A stretch of DNA of 64,000 bases from Candidatus Tenebribacter burtonii (GTDB taxonomy: Bacteria; Cloacimonadota; Cloacimonadia; Cloacimonadales; TCS61): assembly GCA_030765625.1 (NCBI GenBank), contig JAVCCF010000037.1, forward strand, positions 1,716-65,715, written 5' to 3'. Position 1 is the first letter of the stretch, and every line of letters begins with the position of its first letter. The notes under the pieces are model-generated. The model saw nothing but the letters and a program-made list of their open reading frames with translations, was not told the origin of the DNA and did no database searches. The position numbers and the translations under genes are program-made. Of this stretch, positions 53,474 through 64,000 are shown one piece after another.

Positions 53474-54037
53474 TTACTTTGCCTTATAAATTGCCACATT
53501 AAGTCCTGAATCTATATTCAATGTTACACTATCAAAAAGATCACTGCTTTCAATGTAGTCAAGATATTCCTTAACTGTATCTTTATGTGAGATGACATTA
53601 TCTGCAACTATTATTGCGTTATTGTTTAATTTATTAATCAGTATCTTAATGTAATCAATGTAATTGATCTTTCCGGCATCAATGAAAACAAAATCAAATT
53701 TATCGGTCAGTTCGGGAATTATCAATTCAGCTTTTCCAAAACGTTGGATGATATTCTTTCTGTTAACAAGATTTTTCTTAGCTAGCTTAAATCTGTCTTC
53801 ATCTACCTCGATAGTATCTACAACAGCATCACAAGATTCTGCAGCAATAGATAACCAAAAAGTAGAAAATCCGTTTGATGTTCCGATCTCCAAAATATGT
53901 TCAGGTGCCTTTATTTTTACGAAAGTATAAAGCAATTCTGCAGTTTCCTGATGTATATTCCATAATCGATGGATATTATTTCTTTGAATATCGAATCTTG
54001 CTAATTCATGTTTATATTTTTCTTTTATTCTTTCCAT
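53474..54037 (-). CDS. class I SAM-dependent O-methyltransferase (family 3, YrrM/CCoAOMT-like)
   Basis: ILEIGTSNGFSTFWL (SAM motif I), FDFVFIDAGK, VADNV. Confidence 0.8.
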   Translation of the reverse strand: MERIKEKYKHELARFDIQRNNIHRLWNIHQETAELLYTFVKIKAPEHILEIGTSNGFSTFWLSIAAESCDAVVDTIEVDEDRFKLAKKNLVNRKNIIQRFGKAELIIPELTDKFDFVFIDAGKINYIDYIKILINKLNNNAIIVADNVISHKDTVKEYLDYIESSDLFDSVTLNIDSGLNVAIYKAK

Positions 54038-55119
54038 TTATATTTCCCAAACGTTCCCTTAAGTCCAAATATAATAAAATATGGAATGTAGATCAACTCA
54101 GCAATTGGGAAAATCCACATTAATTTTAATCTCTTCATTTTAACTAAAAACAATGTTAATAATAGAAATTCTGGAATTATCTTTAAAAATAAAATAATTA
54201 CAAATAAAGTTGTTGAAATATAAGCAAACGTAAATCCCATAAAACATCCGACAAAAACTAAATAATAAACAAATATAAATAATGTCATCATTTTTACAGG
54301 TATTGTATAATTATACCATTTGGATCCACGTCTTGTTTCCTGTTGGATCTGTGACCCTGTAGTTTCATCTCTACCAGTATTAACAATAGAATCAGGATGG
54401 AACATGAATTTCATTCTGCGAGCAATTTTTCCCATTTTTTGTATCATTAAAACGTCATCACCAGATTTGATCAAACCTATATCGTTAAATCCGTTAACTT
54501 TATCATACAGTTCTTTCCGATAAGCCATATTCCCGGCAGTTATTGTAACTCCCCAGTTCCATCCGAAACTTCCTGCAATAACAGCAAAAATAGATGATCG
54601 TTCCAAATTCTTCAGGAACTTGAAAAAAGGATTTTTGTAATATATATAAGAATATCCTGCAACAATATCGGTATCATCAGTAAAATGATTATTAATTTGC
54701 AAGAGCCAGTTATTCGTTGGAACGCAATCAGAATCCGTGAATGCAAGTATATTATGCTTTGCTGCTCGAATTCCTTTGTCCAGAGCTCCTTTCTTTCCTA
54801 AGAGGACTTTAGACTCATTCTTAACTTGAAGAAGCATTATATTACTGTTTTTAGATTTGTACTTATTCACAATATTAGACGTATTATCTTCAGACCGGTC
54901 ATCAACTATAATTATTTCATAATTTTCTTTTGGAAAATTCTGAGAAATTAAAGAATTAAGAAGATTGTAAATATGCTTCTCTTCGTTTCTGGCTGCTATT
55001 ATAACAGATATCTTATTTATCTTCGCATTCTTTGAATTATTTAAAAACAAAATTCCAATGAAAAAAGAGAATATAATCATGAAGTACAAAATTGCGAAGA
55101 TATAAATAGTAAATTCCAT
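54025..55119 (-). CDS. membrane-embedded family-2 glycosyltransferase with processive-type signature
   Basis: N-terminal TM. VIIAARNEE, VDDRSED, TDSDC (DxD), GDDVLM, QQETRRGSKW (QxxRW-like). Three or four C-terminal TM helices. Confidence 0.8.
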   Translation of the reverse strand: MEFTIYIFAILYFMIIFSFFIGILFLNNSKNAKINKISVIIAARNEEKHIYNLLNSLISQNFPKENYEIIIVDDRSEDNTSNIVNKYKSKNSNIMLLQVKNESKVLLGKKGALDKGIRAAKHNILAFTDSDCVPTNNWLLQINNHFTDDTDIVAGYSYIYYKNPFFKFLKNLERSSIFAVIAGSFGWNWGVTITAGNMAYRKELYDKVNGFNDIGLIKSGDDVLMIQKMGKIARRMKFMFHPDSIVNTGRDETTGSQIQQETRRGSKWYNYTIPVKMMTLFIFVYYLVFVGCFMGFTFAYISTTLFVIILFLKIIPEFLLLTLFLVKMKRLKLMWIFPIAELIYIPYFIIFGLKGTFGKYKWKE

Positions 55120-55238
55120 AAATTCCTTAATTCACAGTTGTTATTGCAAAAACCTTGACCGTGAACCCTTTTAAAATAATTTTCTATTTCAAAAATTGAA
55201 ATATTAATTTTTTAGTCAATGATATTGGAGAGAAATAA

Positions 55239-55874
55239 ATGGCATTAATACCAAAGTTCATCTATAAAGTAAAGATCAAAATGAAGCTGGTTGCACTTAC
55301 ATTCGATGATGGACCACATCCCCTGTTCACAAATGAATTGCTTGATCTATTTAAAGAAAATGGCATTAAAGCCACATTCTTTGTTACAGGTAAGAATATA
55401 GTAAAACACAAAAAGATAGTTAGAAGAATGATCAAAGAAGGACATGAACTTGGTAATCATTCATATTCACATTGGAATTTAATATTTAAGAAAAAGAGCA
55501 TGATAAGAGAAGAAATAGAAAAAACAGACAGGTTGTTACGTGAGCTTGGTGTAAAAGATGATATCCATTTCCGACCACCATTTGGTAGGTTTTTATTTGC
55601 AGCATTATCAATTCTGGCTTCTTTGAATAAAAAGATAATTATGTGGAATGTTCCAACAAAAGATTATAAAGAGAACGATCCAAAAGTGATCCTAAAAAGA
55701 ATTTATAAACGTATCAAGCCTGGATCAATAATAGTGTTGCATGATTCTGGAATAGAAAGATCTGGAAAGAAAATTGATAGACAAGCTACTATTGATGCTG
55801 TGAAAATGCTTATTGACGAATTGCCTAAAAGAGGTTACGAATTCAGAACTGTGTCAGAGTTAATTAATAATTGA
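55239..55874 (+). CDS. polysaccharide deacetylase (CE4, NodB homology domain)
   Basis: LTFDDGPHP, ATFFV, HELGNHSYSH, RPPFG, LHD. Confidence 0.85.
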   Translation: MALIPKFIYKVKIKMKLVALTFDDGPHPLFTNELLDLFKENGIKATFFVTGKNIVKHKKIVRRMIKEGHELGNHSYSHWNLIFKKKSMIREEIEKTDRLLRELGVKDDIHFRPPFGRFLFAALSILASLNKKIIMWNVPTKDYKENDPKVILKRIYKRIKPGSIIVLHDSGIERSGKKIDRQATIDAVKMLIDELPKRGYEFRTVSELINN

Positions 55875-57668: not shown

Positions 57669-57755
57669 GCAGAAGTGGCGGAATTGGTAGACGCGCTAGG
57701 TTCAGGGTCTAGTGAGCAATTGCTTGTGGGGGTTCAAGTCCCCCCTTCTGCACCA
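57669..57755 (+). tRNA. tRNA-Leu (anticodon CAG), type II with long variable arm, CCA encoded
   Basis: Acceptor GCAGAAG/CTTCTGC. Anticodon stem CTAGG/TCTAG with loop TTCAGGG. T-arm GGGGG-TTCAAGT-CCCCC. Discriminator A plus CCA. Confidence 0.9.
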
Positions 57756-57765
57756 TATTTATAAA

Positions 57766-58329
57766 TCACATAAAGAATAAATGCTCAATAAGAATTTTCA
57801 ATCCAATTCCGATTAGAACTGTACCCCCGATAAATTCTATCTTATTCTCGAATAATGATCCAAATTTACCACCAAGATAAACACCCAGTAATGAAAGTAA
57901 AAATGTGATTATGCCAATAATTATTGCGGGTTGTATGATTTGAACTTGCAATGCAGAAAAACTAAGTCCTACCGCTAAAGCGTCAATACTGGTGGCAATA
58001 GATAGAACGAATACAGTTATCAAATTATTTGGATCACATTTACTTTCTGCCTTTTCGATCAGGAAAGATTCATAGATCATCTTACCGCCAATAAAAGTAA
58101 GTAAGCCAAAAGCGATCCAGTGATCGAATGCCGCGATGTAGTGTTGGAAACTAGTTCCCGCTAACCAACCTAACACCGGCATGAGTGCCTGAAAGCCACC
58201 AAAGAAGAAAGCAACTCGAAGAGCAGGACGTACTTTGAAACATTTTAAAGTAACTCCACTGGCAATAGAAACAGCAAATGCATCCATTGCTAAACCAAAA
58301 GCAATTAAAATTATTGTAATTATATTCAT
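57766..58329 (-). CDS. mntP: manganese efflux pump MntP family
   Basis: Two homologous halves with the DAFAVS / DALAVG motif. Six TM helices. 187 aa. Confidence 0.85.
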   Translation of the reverse strand: MNIITIILIAFGLAMDAFAVSIASGVTLKCFKVRPALRVAFFFGGFQALMPVLGWLAGTSFQHYIAAFDHWIAFGLLTFIGGKMIYESFLIEKAESKCDPNNLITVFVLSIATSIDALAVGLSFSALQVQIIQPAIIIGIITFLLSLLGVYLGGKFGSLFENKIEFIGGTVLIGIGLKILIEHLFFM

Positions 58330-58402
58330 TCAATCTCCAAAAACAAAACTTGAATTAAAAGATAATTAGTAAATGATTTTATCCTAACTATAAATTTTCC
58401 CT

Positions 58403-58541
58403 CGTTAACAAGTTGTATTTTTCTCATTAACAAGTTGAACTTGTTAACGCTACTGCTTTGTAAGTTTTACTTACGAACTTGTTTATTATGTAAGAAGTAT
58501 AACTTCAATATCAATTGTGTTCGCAAGTGCAACTTGCGAAC
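58403..58541. repeat. periodic array of AAGT-nnn-ACTT-apex hairpins
   Basis: 58427-58447 TTAACAAGT-TGA-ACTTGTTAA. 58457-58477 TTTGTAAGT-TTT-ACTTACGAA (one G-T pair). 58494-58506 GAAGT-ATA-ACTTC. 58519-58541 GTTCGCAAGT-GCA-ACTTGCGAAC. Centres are about 30-33 bp apart. An extra 5' arm copy at 58403-58414 can pair 12 bp with 58438-58449. Confidence 0.65.
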
Positions 58542-58563
58542 AAGAGATGTATAAATTTTGAAC

Positions 58564-58590
58564 TTGACTTTCAATAACTACAATTATAAT
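58564..58590 (+). promoter_or_regulatory. sigma70-like promoter candidate for the antitoxin/NTPase pair
   Basis: TTGACT (58564-58569), 15-nt spacer, TATAAT (58585-58590). The spacer is shorter than optimal. Confidence 0.35.
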
Positions 58591-58608
58591 TTCACAATAG
58601 GTTTAAAA

Positions 58609-58860
58609 ATGAAGACGTACAATATTGAATTAATTGAGAAAAGATTTGAAGAATTAATTGATCTCACTATTGATCATGACAATATTCTTAGAATTAAAAC
58701 CGGCAAAGGTAATGCAATTATAATCTCAGAAACAAAATGGAAATCAATTAAAGAAACTTTATTTCTTCTTTCAATTTCAGGTATGAGAGAATTGATAAAG
58801 AAAGGTATGAACACTCCTCTGGCTGAATGTAGTGAGGAATTGGAGTGGAAGAAAAGTTAG
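58609..58860 (+). CDS. Phd/YefM-family type II antitoxin-like protein
   Basis: 83 aa. MKTYNIELIEKRFEELIDL...GNAIIISETKWKSIKETLFLLSISGMRELIKKGMNTPLAECSEELEW is typical of Phd/YefM antitoxins. Start at ATG 58609 is preferred over the TTG at 58558. Confidence 0.8.
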   Translation: MKTYNIELIEKRFEELIDLTIDHDNILRIKTGKGNAIIISETKWKSIKETLFLLSISGMRELIKKGMNTPLAECSEELEWKKS

Positions 58861-58885
58861 AATTAAAAAAATAAAGGGATTTAAT

Positions 58886-61699
58886 ATGGAATCAATAATA
58901 ATTAAAATAATTGATTTAATTATAACATTTGCTTCAAAATCAATGAAAAAAGATTTTGAAATTGTAAAGTATCTGAAGAAAATGGGATTATTGAAATTAG
59001 AAGCTAATTTTGATTCAAGACTTATACATTCGTTAATTGAATTTGGTAAAAATAAAACTAATCTCAGATTCATTGAAGTTATGAAAGACAAAGTGTTACA
59101 AGAACTATTTCAAAAAGGAATATATGAAAATAAGCTTGATGAGTTTAAGAAAAAGGCTGAATTTACGCTTCATAAGAAATTAGCTTTTGAGAATATTACA
59201 TTGGATATACCATACGAGCAAATTATAGATGATTTTGTTTCAACTTTCGAAACAATTGATAAACAAACAGAAAGCAAAGCAATACTTGATTTTATAAACA
59301 ATACTAACTTGAAATTATTTGAATTATCTGAAACCAACTATAAAAACTCTTTCGAATACAAAATAGAAAAATACTTGGCTCAATTAATTGATGATTTCTA
59401 TAACAAGTTTGTGAATGATGATCTTTATGTAGACTTAAACGGTGTAACTAAAATTAAAACAAAAGTTCATCTGCATACAAAAGGAATAGTAAAAGAGGAG
59501 ATGAATGATAATTCATATGTTGAACTTAAAGCCGTAGCAGAAATAGATTATGAACCAATTGATAAATACATAAATGAATGGTTGGAAAAAGAAAATAAGA
59601 ATTTCCTGATAATCCTTGGAGAATACGGAACAGGCAAATCAACTTTATGTGAATATATTTCCTGTGATCTGGCAAAAGGTAATTTAAATCAGGGTGAACA
59701 AAAGATACAGGACAAAAAGCACAGAAAACCAATAATATTTAACCTGAGAAATTTTAGAAATCAGGGCCTCGAAGCCTTTTTAATATCTGAGTTAAGTATA
59801 AATGTCAATGAAGTATCATTTATTGAATTTAAAGAGAAATTGAAAAATGATGAATTCATATTGATATTTGATGGCTTCGATGAAATGGCAGCAGAAATAG
59901 ATGTAAGGGGGAAAAAAATTAATTTCGATTATATATTCGATATTTTAAAGTTCTATAAAAATAGTAAAATCATACTTACAAGTAGAATTGAATATTTCCA
60001 ATCATTGCAAGAACAATCGGAAGCATTAAAAGTGAATGAAGAAAATGTAGATACTATTTACATTAAATTATTTGAAGAACCTCAGATCTTAAAATTCCTA
60101 GAAAGAATGAAGGGAGAGCCAAATAAGAACTGGAAAGAGATAGAAGCTATTAACGGATTAAAAGATTTAGCAAAGAGACCGGTTCTCTTAAACTTAATCG
60201 TAAAACATTTAATGAAAATTCTTAAAGAAACAAAACAAGAAGTAAAATCGATTGATGTATTCAGTGCTGCCATCGATGATGAACTTAAAGAGATCAGGAA
60301 AAAATTCCGAAAAGATGATAGAGATTATGGAACAGATGACGCTACAAGGATGAGAATCTTACAGAAGGTTTGTATATCTCTTTTCATCAAAAATCAACTA
60401 AGCATTCCAATTATAGAAATAGCAGATTATGCTAAAAATGATCCTGATTTAAAAAATAAAAACGCAGCACAAATAGAAAACTATCTGACAAATTTCCATA
60501 CTTACACTTTCTTTGCTAGAGATAAAGATGATATTTTTAGAATATCACATAAAGCATTTATAGATTATCTGGCAGCAAAAGAGTTATATGAAGAAATTAC
60601 AAGCAATAAACCAGTGAACTTCGGGAAACAACAAATCAATGTTGCTATAATTCACTTTATCTTCGAAATGAAACCAAGTAAAACCAAATTGAAAAGATTA
60701 TTTAAAACTGCAGCAGAAACAACAGAAAAAACCAAATGGCAAAAAAGCAATGCAGTTAATTTAATTTTGAAAATTGATAATCCTCGATATGCTGGCAATG
60801 TCGATTTCAATTCAAGTGAAGTAAATTTGGAAAATTCTTATTTATATAATATTGATATTTTGATTGAATTGGAAAAATTAACAAATCTAAATTTAGCTAA
60901 GAATCAAATCAGCAACATATCACCACTACAGGAATTGAAGACTTTAGTTAGTTTAGATTTAAATAATAACCAAATCAGCGACCTATCACCGCTACAGGAT
61001 TTGAAGAATTTGACTATTATTGATTTGTCTATAAATAGAATCCGCAACCTAAAACCATTACATGGTTTGATAAACTTAATAAGTTTAGACTTATTCATGA
61101 ATAAAATTACAGACATTAAACCTTTGATTAATTTAAGGAATTTACAAAGTTTAAGTTTAGTAGGCAATGAGATCAATAATATTGAGATTTTGAAAGATTT
61201 TATTTATTTAGAGACTTTATTTTTAGCTGGTAATCAAATTAATGATATCAAGTCTTTGAGAGAATTAAAGACGTTAAAATGCTTAACTTTATCATACAAC
61301 CAAATCATCGATATCAAACCTCTGATAGGTTTAAAAAAACTTACTGATTTGAACTTACGTAATAATCGATTAAATAACATCGAATCTTTGAGAGAATTGA
61401 AGAATTTATTGTTTTTATGTTTAACAACAAATCAGATTAATGATATTGGACATTTGAAAGATCTGAAAAATTTAACAACTTTAGAACTTGCTTACAATCA
61501 AATTTGTGACATTCAACCTTTGAAAAATATGAAAAAGTTACAGCGTTTAATACTATCAATGAATAAAATTAATAATATTGATACTCTGAAAGAATTAAAA
61601 AATTTAACTGAATTATTAATAACTGGAAATCCACTTAAATCCTCTCAAATAGAAGAATTGAGGAAAGCTCTGCCCAAAACAAATATCGAATTTTATTAA
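58886..61699 (+). CDS. NACHT-type STAND NTPase with unassigned N-terminal domain and 12 C-terminal leucine-rich repeats (bacterial NLR-like)
   Basis: ATG 58886 lies 7 nt after AAGGGA; an alternative GTG at 58832 would overlap the antitoxin. Walker A GEYGTGKST (59618-59644). Walker B ILIFDGFDEM (59858-59887). ILTSR, KRPVLLNL, FRISHKAFIDYLAA. Then 12 x 22-aa LRRs. Confidence 0.8.
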   Translation: MESIIIKIIDLIITFASKSMKKDFEIVKYLKKMGLLKLEANFDSRLIHSLIEFGKNKTNLRFIEVMKDKVLQELFQKGIYENKLDEFKKKAEFTLHKKLAFENITLDIPYEQIIDDFVSTFETIDKQTESKAILDFINNTNLKLFELSETNYKNSFEYKIEKYLAQLIDDFYNKFVNDDLYVDLNGVTKIKTKVHLHTKGIVKEEMNDNSYVELKAVAEIDYEPIDKYINEWLEKENKNFLIILGEYGTGKSTLCEYISCDLAKGNLNQGEQKIQDKKHRKPIIFNLRNFRNQGLEAFLISELSINVNEVSFIEFKEKLKNDEFILIFDGFDEMAAEIDVRGKKINFDYIFDILKFYKNSKIILTSRIEYFQSLQEQSEALKVNEENVDTIYIKLFEEPQILKFLERMKGEPNKNWKEIEAINGLKDLAKRPVLLNLIVKHLMKILKETKQEVKSIDVFSAAIDDELKEIRKKFRKDDRDYGTDDATRMRILQKVCISLFIKNQLSIPIIEIADYAKNDPDLKNKNAAQIENYLTNFHTYTFFARDKDDIFRISHKAFIDYLAAKELYEEITSNKPVNFGKQQINVAIIHFIFEMKPSKTKLKRLFKTAAETTEKTKWQKSNAVNLILKIDNPRYAGNVDFNSSEVNLENSYLYNIDILIELEKLTNLNLAKNQISNISPLQELKTLVSLDLNNNQISDLSPLQDLKNLTIIDLSINRIRNLKPLHGLINLISLDLFMNKITDIKPLINLRNLQSLSLVGNEINNIEILKDFIYLETLFLAGNQINDIKSLRELKTLKCLTLSYNQIIDIKPLIGLKKLTDLNLRNNRLNNIESLRELKNLLFLCLTTNQINDIGHLKDLKNLTTLELAYNQICDIQPLKNMKKLQRLILSMNKINNIDTLKELKNLTELLITGNPLKSSQIEELRKALPKTNIEFY
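60869..61660 (+). repeat. 12 tandem 66-bp coding repeats (22-residue LRR units)
   Basis: Units of the form LxxLxxLxLxxNxIxDIxPLxx, e.g. LKTLVSLDLNNNQISDLSPLQD and LKNLTTLELAYNQICDIQPLKN. Confidence 0.9.
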
Positions 61700-61720
61700 T
61701 ATTAAAAAAGGTTTTTCATA

Positions 61721-61750
61721 AAAGGGCAACTCGTGAGTTGCCCCTACATA
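61721..61750. terminator. bidirectional terminator between the NTPase gene and leuS
   Basis: Perfect 8-bp stem GGGCAACT / AGTTGCCC (61724-61743), loop CGTG. T-rich sequence follows on both strands. Confidence 0.7.
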
Positions 61751-61792
61751 TTTTCTCTGTGTTCTTTGTTTCTCAGTGTCTCTGTGTTGATT

Positions 61793-64000
61793 TTATTTCG
61801 CTACTATACTAACAAGCTTCTTCGGTACAATTATCATTTTCAGGATATTTTTCCCTTCAAGTGATTTCTTCACATTTTCTACTTCCAAAGCCAGTTTCTT
61901 TATTTCATCATCAGTTGCATCAACCGAGACATTGATCTTACCACGTACTTTACCCATGATCTGAATAACATAAGTGATCTCATCCTGAACCAGATACTTT
62001 TCATTGAATTCGGGAAGTCCAGCTTCATGGAGCAAGTTTTCGTTTCCAATTTTCTCCCACAATTCTTCGCTGAGGTGAGGAGCAAAAACATACATCAAAT
62101 GCGGGATTGCAATACAGCTTTCTACAAATATAATTTTCTCAGCATTATTCAATTTATCTACATTCTTAATAGAGTAAACATTGTTCAGATGCTCCATGAC
62201 AGCTGCGATGGCTGTATTGAACTGCATTCTGTTTTCGATATCATTCAGTACTTTCTTTATTGTGAAATGAGTACTGTAACGCAGCTTTTTAATTTCTGCA
62301 CTTAATTCGTTATCTGACCCTTCGACTCCGCTCAGGGTGACAGACGTATTTTTTATTAGTTCCAGATTTTCATCAAACAATCTCCAAACACGATTCAGGA
62401 AACGGAATGCACCTTTCACACCTTCATCACTCCATTCCGAATCTTTATCAGGGGGAGAGGCAAACAGCATGAATACCCGCACTGTGTCAGCTCCGTAACG
62501 ATCTATAATATATTGCGGATCAACCACGTTGCCTTTAGATTTACTCATTTTAGCACCGTCTTTTGTAACCATTCCCTGTGTAAGCAATCTGGCAAAAGGT
62601 TCGTTAGATTTTACCATGCCCAAATCCCGCATAAATTTATGGAAGAAACGTGCATACATCAAGTGCATTACAGCATGCTCGATCCCACCGATATACTGAT
62701 CTACCGGAAGCCAGTTATCTGCAAATTCCTTACTGAATGGCATTTTATCATTTTTGGGATCAGCATAACGAGCATAATACCAGGAACTATCCACAAAAGT
62801 ATCCATCGTATCTGTTTCACGTCTGGCAGATTTCCCGCATTTTGGGCATTTTACATTAACCCAATCATCAACTGAAAGCAATGGATTCTGAGTTGTTTTG
62901 CCCAGTTCAACATTCTCAGGAAGTTTTATGGGAAGATCTTCATCGGAGACCAGAACAGTTCCGCAATCTTCACAATAAATTATTGGAATCGGATTTCCCC
63001 AGTAGCGTTGTCGGGAAATTCCCCAGTCACGAAGTCTGTAAGTTACCGTTTCTTTTCCCATGTTGTTTGCAGTCATCCATTCTGAAATAGGTTTTTGGGA
63101 ATTAACGCTGTCCATTCCATCAAATTTATCAGAATTTACCAATATCCCAGGTTCAGTGTAAGCCTTTTTCATCTCTTCCATGATCAGATCTTTATCTGGA
63201 TTCTGAATAACTATCTTCATAGGAATATCATATTTTTTGGCAAATTCGAAATCACGTTGATCATGGGTTGGAACAGCCATCACAGCACCGGTTCCGTAAT
63301 CCATCAGAACATAATTTGTGATCCAGATCTGAACCCTTTCACCATTAACCGGATTGATCGCAAACCTTCCTGTGAAGATCCCTTCTTTCGTTGTATCTTC
63401 AGCAGTTCTCGTAATAGTATCTTCATTTAAAACTTTATCACAGAATTTTTGCATCTCAGAATCTGTCGGTTCGTCTTTAAGCCAATTCGTAACCAGAGGA
63501 TGCTCAGGTGGAAGTGCCATGAACGTACAACCGAATATTGTGTCCGGTCTGGTTGTGAATACTTTTATCAGCTCATCCGAATTTTCCAGTTTAAACCAGA
63601 TCTCAGTTCCGAAACTTTTTCCGATCCAATTAGTCTGCATGGTCTTCACACGTTCAGGCCAATCTATAACTCTACTGAAATCGAGTAATTCTTCGGCATA
63701 ATCAGTAATTTTAAAGAACCATTGTTCCAATTCTTTCTGGCGTACTACACTACCGCATCGCCAGCATTTATTATCTTCTACCTGCTCATTTGCCAATACT
63801 GTCTGGCAGTCATCGCACCAATTCTGAAACGAAGTTTTCTTGTAAGCCAGTCCTTTTTCATACATCTTTTTAAAGAACCACTGTCCCCATTTATAATATT
63901 CCGGGTGACAGGTACTTACTTCACGATCCCAATCCATTCCAAAACCCATCATATCAAATTGTTTTCTCATAATATCAATATTATTATCAGTTGTAATTCG
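61793..64000 (-). CDS. leuS: leucyl-tRNA synthetase, N-terminus beyond window end
   Basis: The frame stays open to position 64000 (…RITTDNNIDIMRKQFDMMGFGMDWDREVSTCHPEYYKW…). Editing domain, KMSKS motif (GAKMSKSKGN), C-terminal anticodon-binding part. Confidence 0.95.
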   Translation of the reverse strand, partial: RITTDNNIDIMRKQFDMMGFGMDWDREVSTCHPEYYKWGQWFFKKMYEKGLAYKKTSFQNWCDDCQTVLANEQVEDNKCWRCGSVVRQKELEQWFFKITDYAEELLDFSRVIDWPERVKTMQTNWIGKSFGTEIWFKLENSDELIKVFTTRPDTIFGCTFMALPPEHPLVTNWLKDEPTDSEMQKFCDKVLNEDTITRTAEDTTKEGIFTGRFAINPVNGERVQIWITNYVLMDYGTGAVMAVPTHDQRDFEFAKKYDIPMKIVIQNPDKDLIMEEMKKAYTEPGILVNSDKFDGMDSVNSQKPISEWMTANNMGKETVTYRLRDWGISRQRYWGNPIPIIYCEDCGTVLVSDEDLPIKLPENVELGKTTQNPLLSVDDWVNVKCPKCGKSARRETDTMDTFVDSSWYYARYADPKNDKMPFSKEFADNWLPVDQYIGGIEHAVMHLMYARFFHKFMRDLGMVKSNEPFARLLTQGMVTKDGAKMSKSKGNVVDPQYIIDRYGADTVRVFMLFASPPDKDSEWSDEGVKGAFRFLNRVWRLFDENLELIKNTSVTLSGVEGSDNELSAEIKKLRYSTHFTIKKVLNDIENRMQFNTAIAAVMEHLNNVYSIKNVDKLNNAEKIIFVESCIAIPHLMYVFAPHLSEELWEKIGNENLLHEAGLPEFNEKYLVQDEITYVIQIMGKVRGKINVSVDATDDEIKKLALEVENVKKSLEGKNILKMIIVPKKLVSIVAK

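Follow-up and report, generated by a model that had tools for sequence, protein, structure and literature searches.

The coiled-coil (CC) domain of the plant CC-NLR resistosome (ZAR1 CC), the four-helix bundle of MLKL and the fungal HeLo domain are soluble helical bundles that disrupt membranes on oligomerization. In bacteria, a hyperactive allele of the NACHT protein bNACHT25 has been shown to be toxic in an effector-dependent manner; in proteins of this type, an Mrr-like restriction endonuclease (REase) precedes a NACHT NTPase and repeats. The NNH names given to N-terminal domains of such proteins stem from the survey of bacterial NACHTs (bNACHTs) by Kibby et al. (bioRxiv 10.1101/2022.07.19.500537). 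Here, we analyzed a 64,000-nucleotide stretch of DNA from Candidatus Tenebribacter burtonii, hereafter called the window, in which a complete gene on the plus strand (58886..61699) encodes an NLR-like protein of 937 aa. As delimited by the list of open reading frames (ORFs), Pfam, AlphaFold2 and Foldseek, the protein consists of an NNH5 domain, a pre-P-loop segment, a NACHT NTPase and leucine-rich repeats (LRRs). An initial annotation, made without database searches, had described its first 244 residues as one unassigned domain.

Two points are solid: residues 1 to ~140 belong, as a divergent copy, to the already catalogued NNH5 family, and the N-terminus is built of two parts. What appeared to be an orphan domain thus becomes a member of a named family, with its boundary corrected to ~140 aa, followed by a segment of ~100 aa that belongs to the NACHT clade. 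With middling confidence, we read NNH5 in this NACHT-LRR protein as an all-alpha, non-enzymatic output module acting directly and stoichiometrically once multimerized, with residues 141-244 as a lead-in. The family and the expected architecture were already known, and the window copy is a divergent addition. What we add is the failure of full-length scans to report NNH5, a census of domain swaps, the lack of a relative in PDB or BFVD, and the lack of NNH5 outside NACHT genes in our searches.

NNH5 identity and two-part anatomy of the N-terminus

In residues 1-244, we identified a match to the Pfam family PF22736 (NNH5, "NACHT N-terminal Helical domain 5"), which covers residues 2-130 (58889-59275) and profile positions 3-133 of 134 with E-values of 1e-11 to 3e-11. 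The score is 44.0 bits when residues 1-244 are scanned and 45.3 bits when residues 1-150 are scanned, compared to a gathering cutoff of 27 bits. The region is therefore no longer unassigned, nor is it a new effector type, the catalogued family being one of the NNH domains named in the survey of Kibby et al. (bioRxiv 10.1101/2022.07.19.500537). NNH5 was found in all 25 homologs of the N-terminal alignment, and a local hidden Markov model built from these homologs recovers cyanobacterial and actinobacterial NNH5 regions with E-values of 1e-11 to 1e-20. Based on the profile match, the homologs and the AlphaFold2 models, the NNH5 helical domain is placed at residues 1 to ~140 (58886..59305, plus strand) as a swappable module of the effector slot; it begins at residue 2, ahead of the NACHT Walker A motif at residue 245. 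The window copy resembles other members of PF22736 in scoring above the cutoff, in its place at the extreme N-terminus of a NACHT NTPase and in being all-alpha and ~135 aa long. It differs from them in its score (44 bits, where the best E-value of the cyanobacterial, actinobacterial and other members scanned was 2.6e-46), in lacking several polar residues conserved in its subgroup, and in having no NA-iREase1 domain between NNH5 and the pre-P-loop segment, unlike the cyanobacterial and actinobacterial members.

The NNH5 match is reported only for pieces of up to 244 residues and is lost when 400, 640 or 937 aa of the same protein are scanned; our guess is a HMMER filter or composition effect. 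PF22736 is missing from the stored annotations of P0001, an ENA metagenome protein identical to the window NLR, and of its homolog P0002, though remoter homologs carry it. This gap, as well as the unassigned look of the region, is probably due to the loss of the match in longer scans. When the 244-aa piece was used alone in a word-indexed homolog search, nothing was returned, and the homologs were obtained from a search with residues 1-640 and from an exhaustive phmmer search. No nuclease, TIR, protease or sirtuin family matched residues 1-244 in Pfam, PADLOC or NCBIfam, which agrees with the earlier remark that no catalytic motif was recognizable, and NCBIfam and PHROGs gave nothing informative on the N-terminus. 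Homology to a known regulatory or DNA-binding domain, which would have spoken against an effector, was looked for in the 25 homologs and no such family matched even at E-values up to 1.

Residues ~141-244 (59306..59617, plus strand) form a constant pre-P-loop segment of the NACHT clade and lie outside the effector module, as seen in the alignment, tblastn and AlphaFold2. The ~105 aa before Walker A could be aligned in 70+ relatives and are common to proteins with REase, TIR, protease, ParA-like and NNH5 N-termini; their consensus is ..T..EL...F..Y...L...Y..L..[variable]..Y...WL....L..LG, after which comes the P-loop. Over all 75 N-terminal regions compared, conservation reaches at least 90 % for Y163 and W232, and in tblastn the relatives without NNH5 begin to match at query residues 147-228. 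Because this segment is shared regardless of the N-terminal domain, the boundary was set at ~140: the swappable module is residues 1 to ~140, and residues 141-244, a lead-in to the NTPase specific to this clade, are not part of the effector, so the single domain of ~244 aa first proposed does not hold. No Pfam family covers residues ~141-244. In the full-length AlphaFold2 model, the segment contains a helix (156-176), a beta-hairpin (186-222), a second helix (226-234, PIDKYINEWL) and strand beta-1 (240-245), and the hairpin tip (196-214), which coincides with a variable Lys/Glu-rich insert, has a predicted local distance difference test score (pLDDT) below 50. The N-terminus had been called helical throughout, which is correct only up to ~residue 176, after which both AlphaFold2 models place the hairpin with its disordered tip, the helix at 226-234 and beta-1. 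The Lys/Glu/Ile richness noted earlier is found (K 14.3, I 11.5, L 11.1 and E 10.2 % in residues 1-244), at a level just mildly above the remainder of the protein for K and E (10.8 and 7.4 %) and in a window with a GC content of ~28-39 %.

The rest of the protein is NLR-like. Residues 1-244 (58886-59617) precede Walker A exactly as first described, the P-loop GEYGTGKS occupying residues 245-252 (59618..59641, plus strand; motif search), and Walker B is DGFDE at residues 329-333 (59870..59884, plus strand; motif position). The latter conforms to D[GAS]hDE, defined as the NACHT signature by Kibby et al. (bioRxiv 10.1101/2022.07.19.500537). Walker A and the stretch D329-M334 are invariant in 24 homologs, and Pfam NACHT (PF05729) scores 37 bits (cutoff 26.7). 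The C-terminal LRRs, the presumed sensor, span residues ~645-937 (60818..61696, plus strand) and were assigned from Pfam LRR_4 (111 bits) and LRR_8, which matched too, from AlphaFold2, where they appear as regular strand/helix repeats with pLDDT >94, and from Foldseek, where internalin A and Chlorobium Roco LRRs match with E-values of ~1e-23 and 34-44 % identity. The LRRs are 45 % identical to those of the closest homolog, compared to 82 % for the NACHT domain of the same protein, a pattern consistent with a rapidly diversifying sensor. The full-length model (pLDDT 86.3) aligns to NLRC4, NOD2 and NLRP3 in Foldseek over more than 900 alignment columns with E-values of 1e-14 to 1e-18, in keeping with an NBD-HD-WHD module like that of solved NLRs, and both the intact Walker motifs and the NLR-like overall fold are thus shown. 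The ATG start codon (58886) follows an AAAGGGA motif by 6 nt, and the starts of P0001 and of the homologs coincide with it (MESIII/MxxxI). An identity with EruA was excluded (NCBIfam EruA, 45.9 bits compared to a cutoff of 1000).

Effector slot, fold and residue conservation

Searched exhaustively with phmmer against 1.84 billion representatives, the 244-aa piece returned 43 proteins only. The match is N-terminal in all 43 and spans most of the 244 residues in most of them, and the short proteins among them are truncated fragments. Together with the window NLR, these 44 proteins carry NNH5 in 35 cases, NACHT in 33, LRR_4 in 20 and pentapeptide repeats in 17 according to Pfam. In a scan of 185,579 species genomes, where loci were searched with the full-length alignment and the best 80 considered, the N-terminus is covered at 11 loci, all of them in metagenome-assembled genomes (MAGs) of the Fibrobacterota-Chlorobiota-Bacteroidota group and allies (FCB group), namely Cloacimonadota, Saprospiraceae, Cytophagia, Bacteroidia/Bacteroidetes and Ignavibacteriales. 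The closest match among the 80 is a Candidatus Cloacimonadota MAG with 65 % identity.

The region before Walker A was then classified in 75 related NACHT genes of species-representative genomes. Mrr_cat or NA-iREase1 was the most frequent (34), followed by NNH5 (19), the ParA-like AAA_31 (four), TIR_2 and HD-CE (three each), Trypsin_2, Peptidase_C14 and DUF4062 (two each), and CHAT and the Cap4 nuclease (one each). Proteins with Mrr_cat and proteins with NNH5 have equally similar NACHT domains and the same pentapeptide or LRR sensors. This census shows that NNH5 sits in the effector slot where close relatives hold nucleases, TIR domains or proteases, and the effector position in a protein of the STAND type, proposed from position alone, is thereby borne out. 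In cyanobacterial and actinobacterial NACHTs, NNH5 is followed by NA-iREase1 (PF22722, named by Pfam 'NACHT-associated inactive Restriction Endonuclease 1') in N-terminal regions of ~350-445 aa, as in loci L059, L061, L069 and L073-L077 and proteins P0156, P0157, P0159 and P0166. If the REase-like domain is inactive as its name says, NNH5 would be left as the sole candidate output of these proteins.

NNH5 is found on NACHT genes with either LRR or pentapeptide sensors. Neither the exhaustive search nor the species-genome loci contained NNH5 apart from a NACHT gene. ORFs of 117-249 aa with NNH5 only occur in Nostoc, Okeania and Streptomyces hirsutus (L087 6001-9989, L088 6001-8384, L090 6001-7652 and L091 6001-9690), and each is followed after 0-210 nt, on the same strand, by ORFs resembling the other part of an NLR; at L091, a 1021-aa iREase-NACHT gene lies 25 nt downstream. 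We read these as split or frameshifted genes, or as genuinely two-part ones. Standalone NNH5 proteins were considered as adaptor evidence and rejected, as the short matches are fragments or ORFs preceding an NLR remainder.

The AlphaFold2 models of the N-terminus (pLDDT 73) and of the full-length protein agree on seven to eight helices up to ~residue 153, with those of NNH5 at residues 2-14/17, 19-33, 42-55, 57-65, 69-82, 84-102 and 110-127, and the block-mean pLDDT of residues 1-140 in the full-length model is ~62-89. The top Foldseek matches of the N-terminal model (a HEPN toxin, arfaptin BAR domains, PA28 and designed bundles) were rejected as generic long-helix matches. No death domain (DD), CARD or PYD chain is found among the listed top Foldseek PDB matches, and a resemblance of the model to the six-helix Death fold is unsupported. 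A sequence-profile search of PDB with the N-terminal alignment gave noise only, the best being MJ0480 with an E-value of 0.022, and no CC/Rx_N, MLKL or HeLo Pfam family was matched in the 25 homologs even at E-values up to 1.

Within the FCB subgroup, NNH5 has a set of semi-conserved polar residues, comprising ERN in helix 2 as well as S44, H48, E52, D56, E113 and N138. Over 30 NNH5 domains from the FCB group, cyanobacteria and actinobacteria, only Y46 and F117 reach at least 90 % conservation, no polar residue is invariant across the family, and in cyanobacteria and actinobacteria position 48 is Y rather than H. In the window copy, ERN is replaced by KDF, and Y46, D56 and E113 by L, N and I, respectively; no conserved stretch of 7-10 columns exists in the N-terminal alignment. 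A catalytic face formed by H48, E52, D56, E113 and N138 was considered and rejected, since conservation of these positions fails both across the wider family and in the window copy. The conservation pattern argues for a structural or interaction module rather than an enzyme.

Helix alpha-1 (residues 2-17, 58889..58936, plus strand; 2-17 or 2-14 in the AlphaFold2 models) lies at the extreme N-terminus and is amphipathic, with polar residues at positions 3, 7, 10, 14, 17 and 18. Its 19-residue Kyte-Doolittle maximum is 1.26, where the usual transmembrane threshold is ~1.6. In the window copy, the hydrophobic moment (muH) is 0.43 and the mean hydrophobicity (H) 0.56; across the family, muH is ~0.39 and all members are amphipathic, with a mean H of 0.25 +/- 0.19, and in 25 homologs the distance of alpha-1 from the N-terminus is 0-35 residues (median 2). 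The hydrophobic start of the protein pointed out in the initial annotation is thus real, as a local feature of the window copy, and belongs to an amphipathic helix. A transmembrane reading of the first 16 residues was rejected on the Kyte-Doolittle maximum, the amphipathic pattern and the low hydrophobicity of the family. The suggested membrane activity finds only weak support, alpha-1 being neither transmembrane-like nor hydrophobic family-wide and no CC, HeLo or MLKL match having been obtained.

Genomic context of the NLR gene

The NLR gene is flanked by mntP and leuS (57766-63970 of the window). The order mntP-[NLR]-leuS is repeated in the closest MAG (L001) and in two remoter relatives (L002/L003 and L004), giving four Cloacimonadota-type contexts including the window, across which the flanking proteins are 71-77 % identical and the NLR domains 30-82 %. 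Compared to P0004 (L002), identity is 77 % for LeuS, 76 % for MntP, 61 % for NACHT, 42 % for the LRRs and 30 % for NNH5. The corresponding values for P0015 (L004) are 76, 72, 39, 33 and 31 %, and those for P0002 (L001) are 71 % for MntP, 82 % for NACHT, 45 % for the LRRs and 69 % for NNH5. The fast evolution of NNH5 seen against P0004 (30 %, compared to 61 % for NACHT and 76-77 % for the flanks) would suit a conflict-related output domain. At L004, the mntP-leuS slot also holds a 1264-aa tetratricopeptide repeat (TPR) protein. The gene may be a fast-evolving resident of this position, or the slot itself may be variable.

No defense genes adjoin the NLR within the window. At 53474-55874, upstream of dnaX, an O-methyltransferase, a family 2 glycosyltransferase (GT2) and a polysaccharide deacetylase are syntenic with the closest MAG, which makes the neighborhood of the NLR a housekeeping one rather than a defense island. 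Other family members adjoin a phage integrase and a TIR-pentapeptide protein, and further members are found near a WYL regulator and an AAA_21/DUF4276 gene pair; no neighbor is conserved in the six homolog contexts (L001-L006). The sole match at gathering level of an Rfam scan of the window is a tRNA-Leu (anticodon CAG) at 57669-57755 on the plus strand, between dnaX and mntP.

An orphan gene for a Phd/YefM-like antitoxin (58609..58860, plus strand) lies 25 nt upstream of the NLR, with a PhdYeFM_antitox score of 27.9 bits (cutoff 29.8). No terminator-like site was found between the two genes, and no YoeB/ParE-type toxin in the 64-kb window. The homolog of the Phd-like gene in the closest MAG (L001 4544-4786, 44 % identity) lies beyond mntP, where it is paired with YoeB, and the gene is absent upstream of the NLR in L001-L006. 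Probably, the Phd-like gene and the NLR are co-transcribed, the former as a neighbor and not as a conserved partner. A functional Phd-NLR pair was considered and rejected, as the two are adjacent in the window only and not in L001-L006.

The intergenic region between mntP and the Phd-like gene contains an operator-like cluster of repeats (58396-58542). It comprises a 22-nt tandem direct repeat (58396-58439), a perfect palindrome, TTAACAAGTT-G-AACTTGTTAA, at 58427-58447 that is unique in the window, a further half-site at 58476-58486, and a second palindrome, TGTTCGCAAGT-GCA-ACTTGCGAACA, at 58518-58542. The 59 nt at ~58419-58477 are 90 % identical to ~5139-5197 of L001. The Rfam scan assigned no family, including the Mn riboswitch, to this region.

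Possible functions of NNH5 and comparison with known systems

By analogy with NLR, bNACHT and Avs proteins, the LRRs would sense a trigger, the NACHT NTPase would oligomerize, and the clustered NNH5 bundles would constitute the output. Multimerized NNH5 might assemble into a structure by which a cellular target is bound or perturbed; this target could be the membrane, reached via alpha-1. Direct stoichiometric action is preferred because both conserved catalytic residues and a conserved partner gene are lacking for NNH5; the mechanism of the output is a guess. More specifically, and only tentatively, NNH5 could be a killing module triggered by oligomerization, in which alpha-1, released on NACHT assembly, breaches the membrane or the domain sequesters an essential target. 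Such a module could, as a rather speculative parallel, correspond in function to the plant CC resistosome and MLKL, although its fold would be unrelated to theirs and is unmatched in PDB.

Several observations weigh against an output module of this kind. A Foldseek comparison of the AlphaFold2 model, already suggested with the initial annotation, gave no match in PDB or BFVD (best E-values of ~1 and ~0.3, TM-scores of ~0.2 or less), and no CC/Rx_N, MLKL or HeLo chain is present among the listed top PDB matches. No transmembrane segment is predicted in the N-terminus, and the hydrophobicity of alpha-1 in the window copy (0.56) is not kept family-wide (0.25 +/- 0.19). The gene has housekeeping surroundings in a conserved mntP-leuS slot instead of a defense island, and a PADLOC scan gave no defense-system match above 17 bits (a weak mad8). 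Oligomerization, sensing and toxicity are all transferred by analogy. In the literature library searched, no paper naming NNH5 and no functional study of it was found, and likewise no functional study of characterized helical bNACHT effectors; the later bNACHT and Avs papers checked do not deal with NNH5. Among the domains of the experimentally tested bNACHTs of Kibby et al. (bioRxiv 10.1101/2022.07.19.500537), only NNH1 represents the NNH domains.

The best surviving alternative, possible but doubtful, is that NNH5 is an adaptor which, after NACHT oligomerization, brings in an effector encoded elsewhere or a host factor with a housekeeping role, such as a protease, nuclease or chaperone. Kibby et al. 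(bioRxiv 10.1101/2022.07.19.500537) class the non-catalytic N-terminal domains of bNACHTs as 'adaptors', NNH5 is without catalytic residues, and host factors are known in bNACHT25 and Avs7 signaling. However, Death-like domains and effector-associated domains (EADs) recur on separate effectors, whereas NNH5 occurs only on NACHT genes or on split ORFs before an NLR remainder, and there is neither a conserved neighbor nor a Death-fold or other model match. For the adaptor role proposed initially, no second NNH5-bearing protein or conserved neighbor to which it could be tied was found.

It is unlikely that NNH5 is instead a regulatory or auto-inhibitory cap, or a module for localization or nucleic acid binding, with the effect coming from the NACHT-LRR part or from elsewhere. 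The variable surface residues on the helical bundle, the additional NNH5 ahead of the REase-like domain in cyanobacterial and actinobacterial proteins, and a conserved chromosomal slot compatible with non-defense signaling would all suit such a role. However, the effector slot would then be empty in the FCB-group proteins, the REase-like domain behind NNH5 is NA-iREase1, named inactive by Pfam, and the family searches described above gave no DNA-binding or regulatory match. Similarly, the NLR is quite unlikely to be a non-immune, vertically inherited housekeeping NTPase with NNH5 as a structural scaffold. The position between mntP and leuS is kept in the window, L001, L002/L003 and L004 with flanks 71-77 % identical, and neither an adjoining defense gene in the window nor a PADLOC match was found. 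On the other hand, the NLR evolves far faster than its flanks (30-61 % by domain, compared to 76-77 %), family members occur near the phage integrase and TIR-pentapeptide gene or the WYL regulator and AAA_21/DUF4276 pair, sister NACHTs carry classic abortive-infection effectors, and the distribution is patchy, with 11 FCB-group loci among the best 80.

A cryptic enzyme with a new fold is highly improbable: S44, H48, E52, D56, E113 and N138, on helix 3 and beyond, are semi-conserved in the FCB subgroup, but none is kept in the wider family and several are lost in the window copy. A toxin-antitoxin-like pair of the NLR and the Phd-like antitoxin, in which NNH5 would be the neutralized toxin module, is scarcely credible, since the 25-nt gap, the missing terminator-like site and the absence of YoeB from the window are set against an adjacency in none of six homolog contexts and a Phd homolog that, in the closest MAG, lies beyond mntP and pairs with YoeB there.

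With a non-enzymatic output module as our preferred reading, NNH5 lends itself well to studying how signaling by bacterial NLRs could work without an enzyme, because it was found on NACHT genes only, has no conserved catalytic residue and matches no fold in PDB or BFVD. If it is a direct effector that binds a membrane or another target, a non-enzymatic output class would be added to bacterial NLR biology.

Among known systems, the window protein shares with bNACHT25-type proteins the motifs GxYGTGK[ST] and DGFDE, the pre-P-loop segment and sensors of the pentapeptide/LRR type; it differs in that its effector slot is filled by NNH5 without catalytic residues and not by a nuclease. With the metazoan NLRs NLRC4, NOD2 and NLRP3, it has in common an N-terminal helical output domain followed by NACHT and LRRs, at a sequence identity of 13-16 % and without detectable similarity of NNH5 to the Death fold of CARD and PYD. 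Compared to ZAR1 CC, MLKL and HeLo, NNH5 differs in having no fold or profile match to them and an alpha-1 of variable hydrophobicity; the likeness, an analogy only, lies in a small all-alpha N-terminal domain with an amphipathic first helix and no enzyme motif, placed in front of an NLR-type switch.

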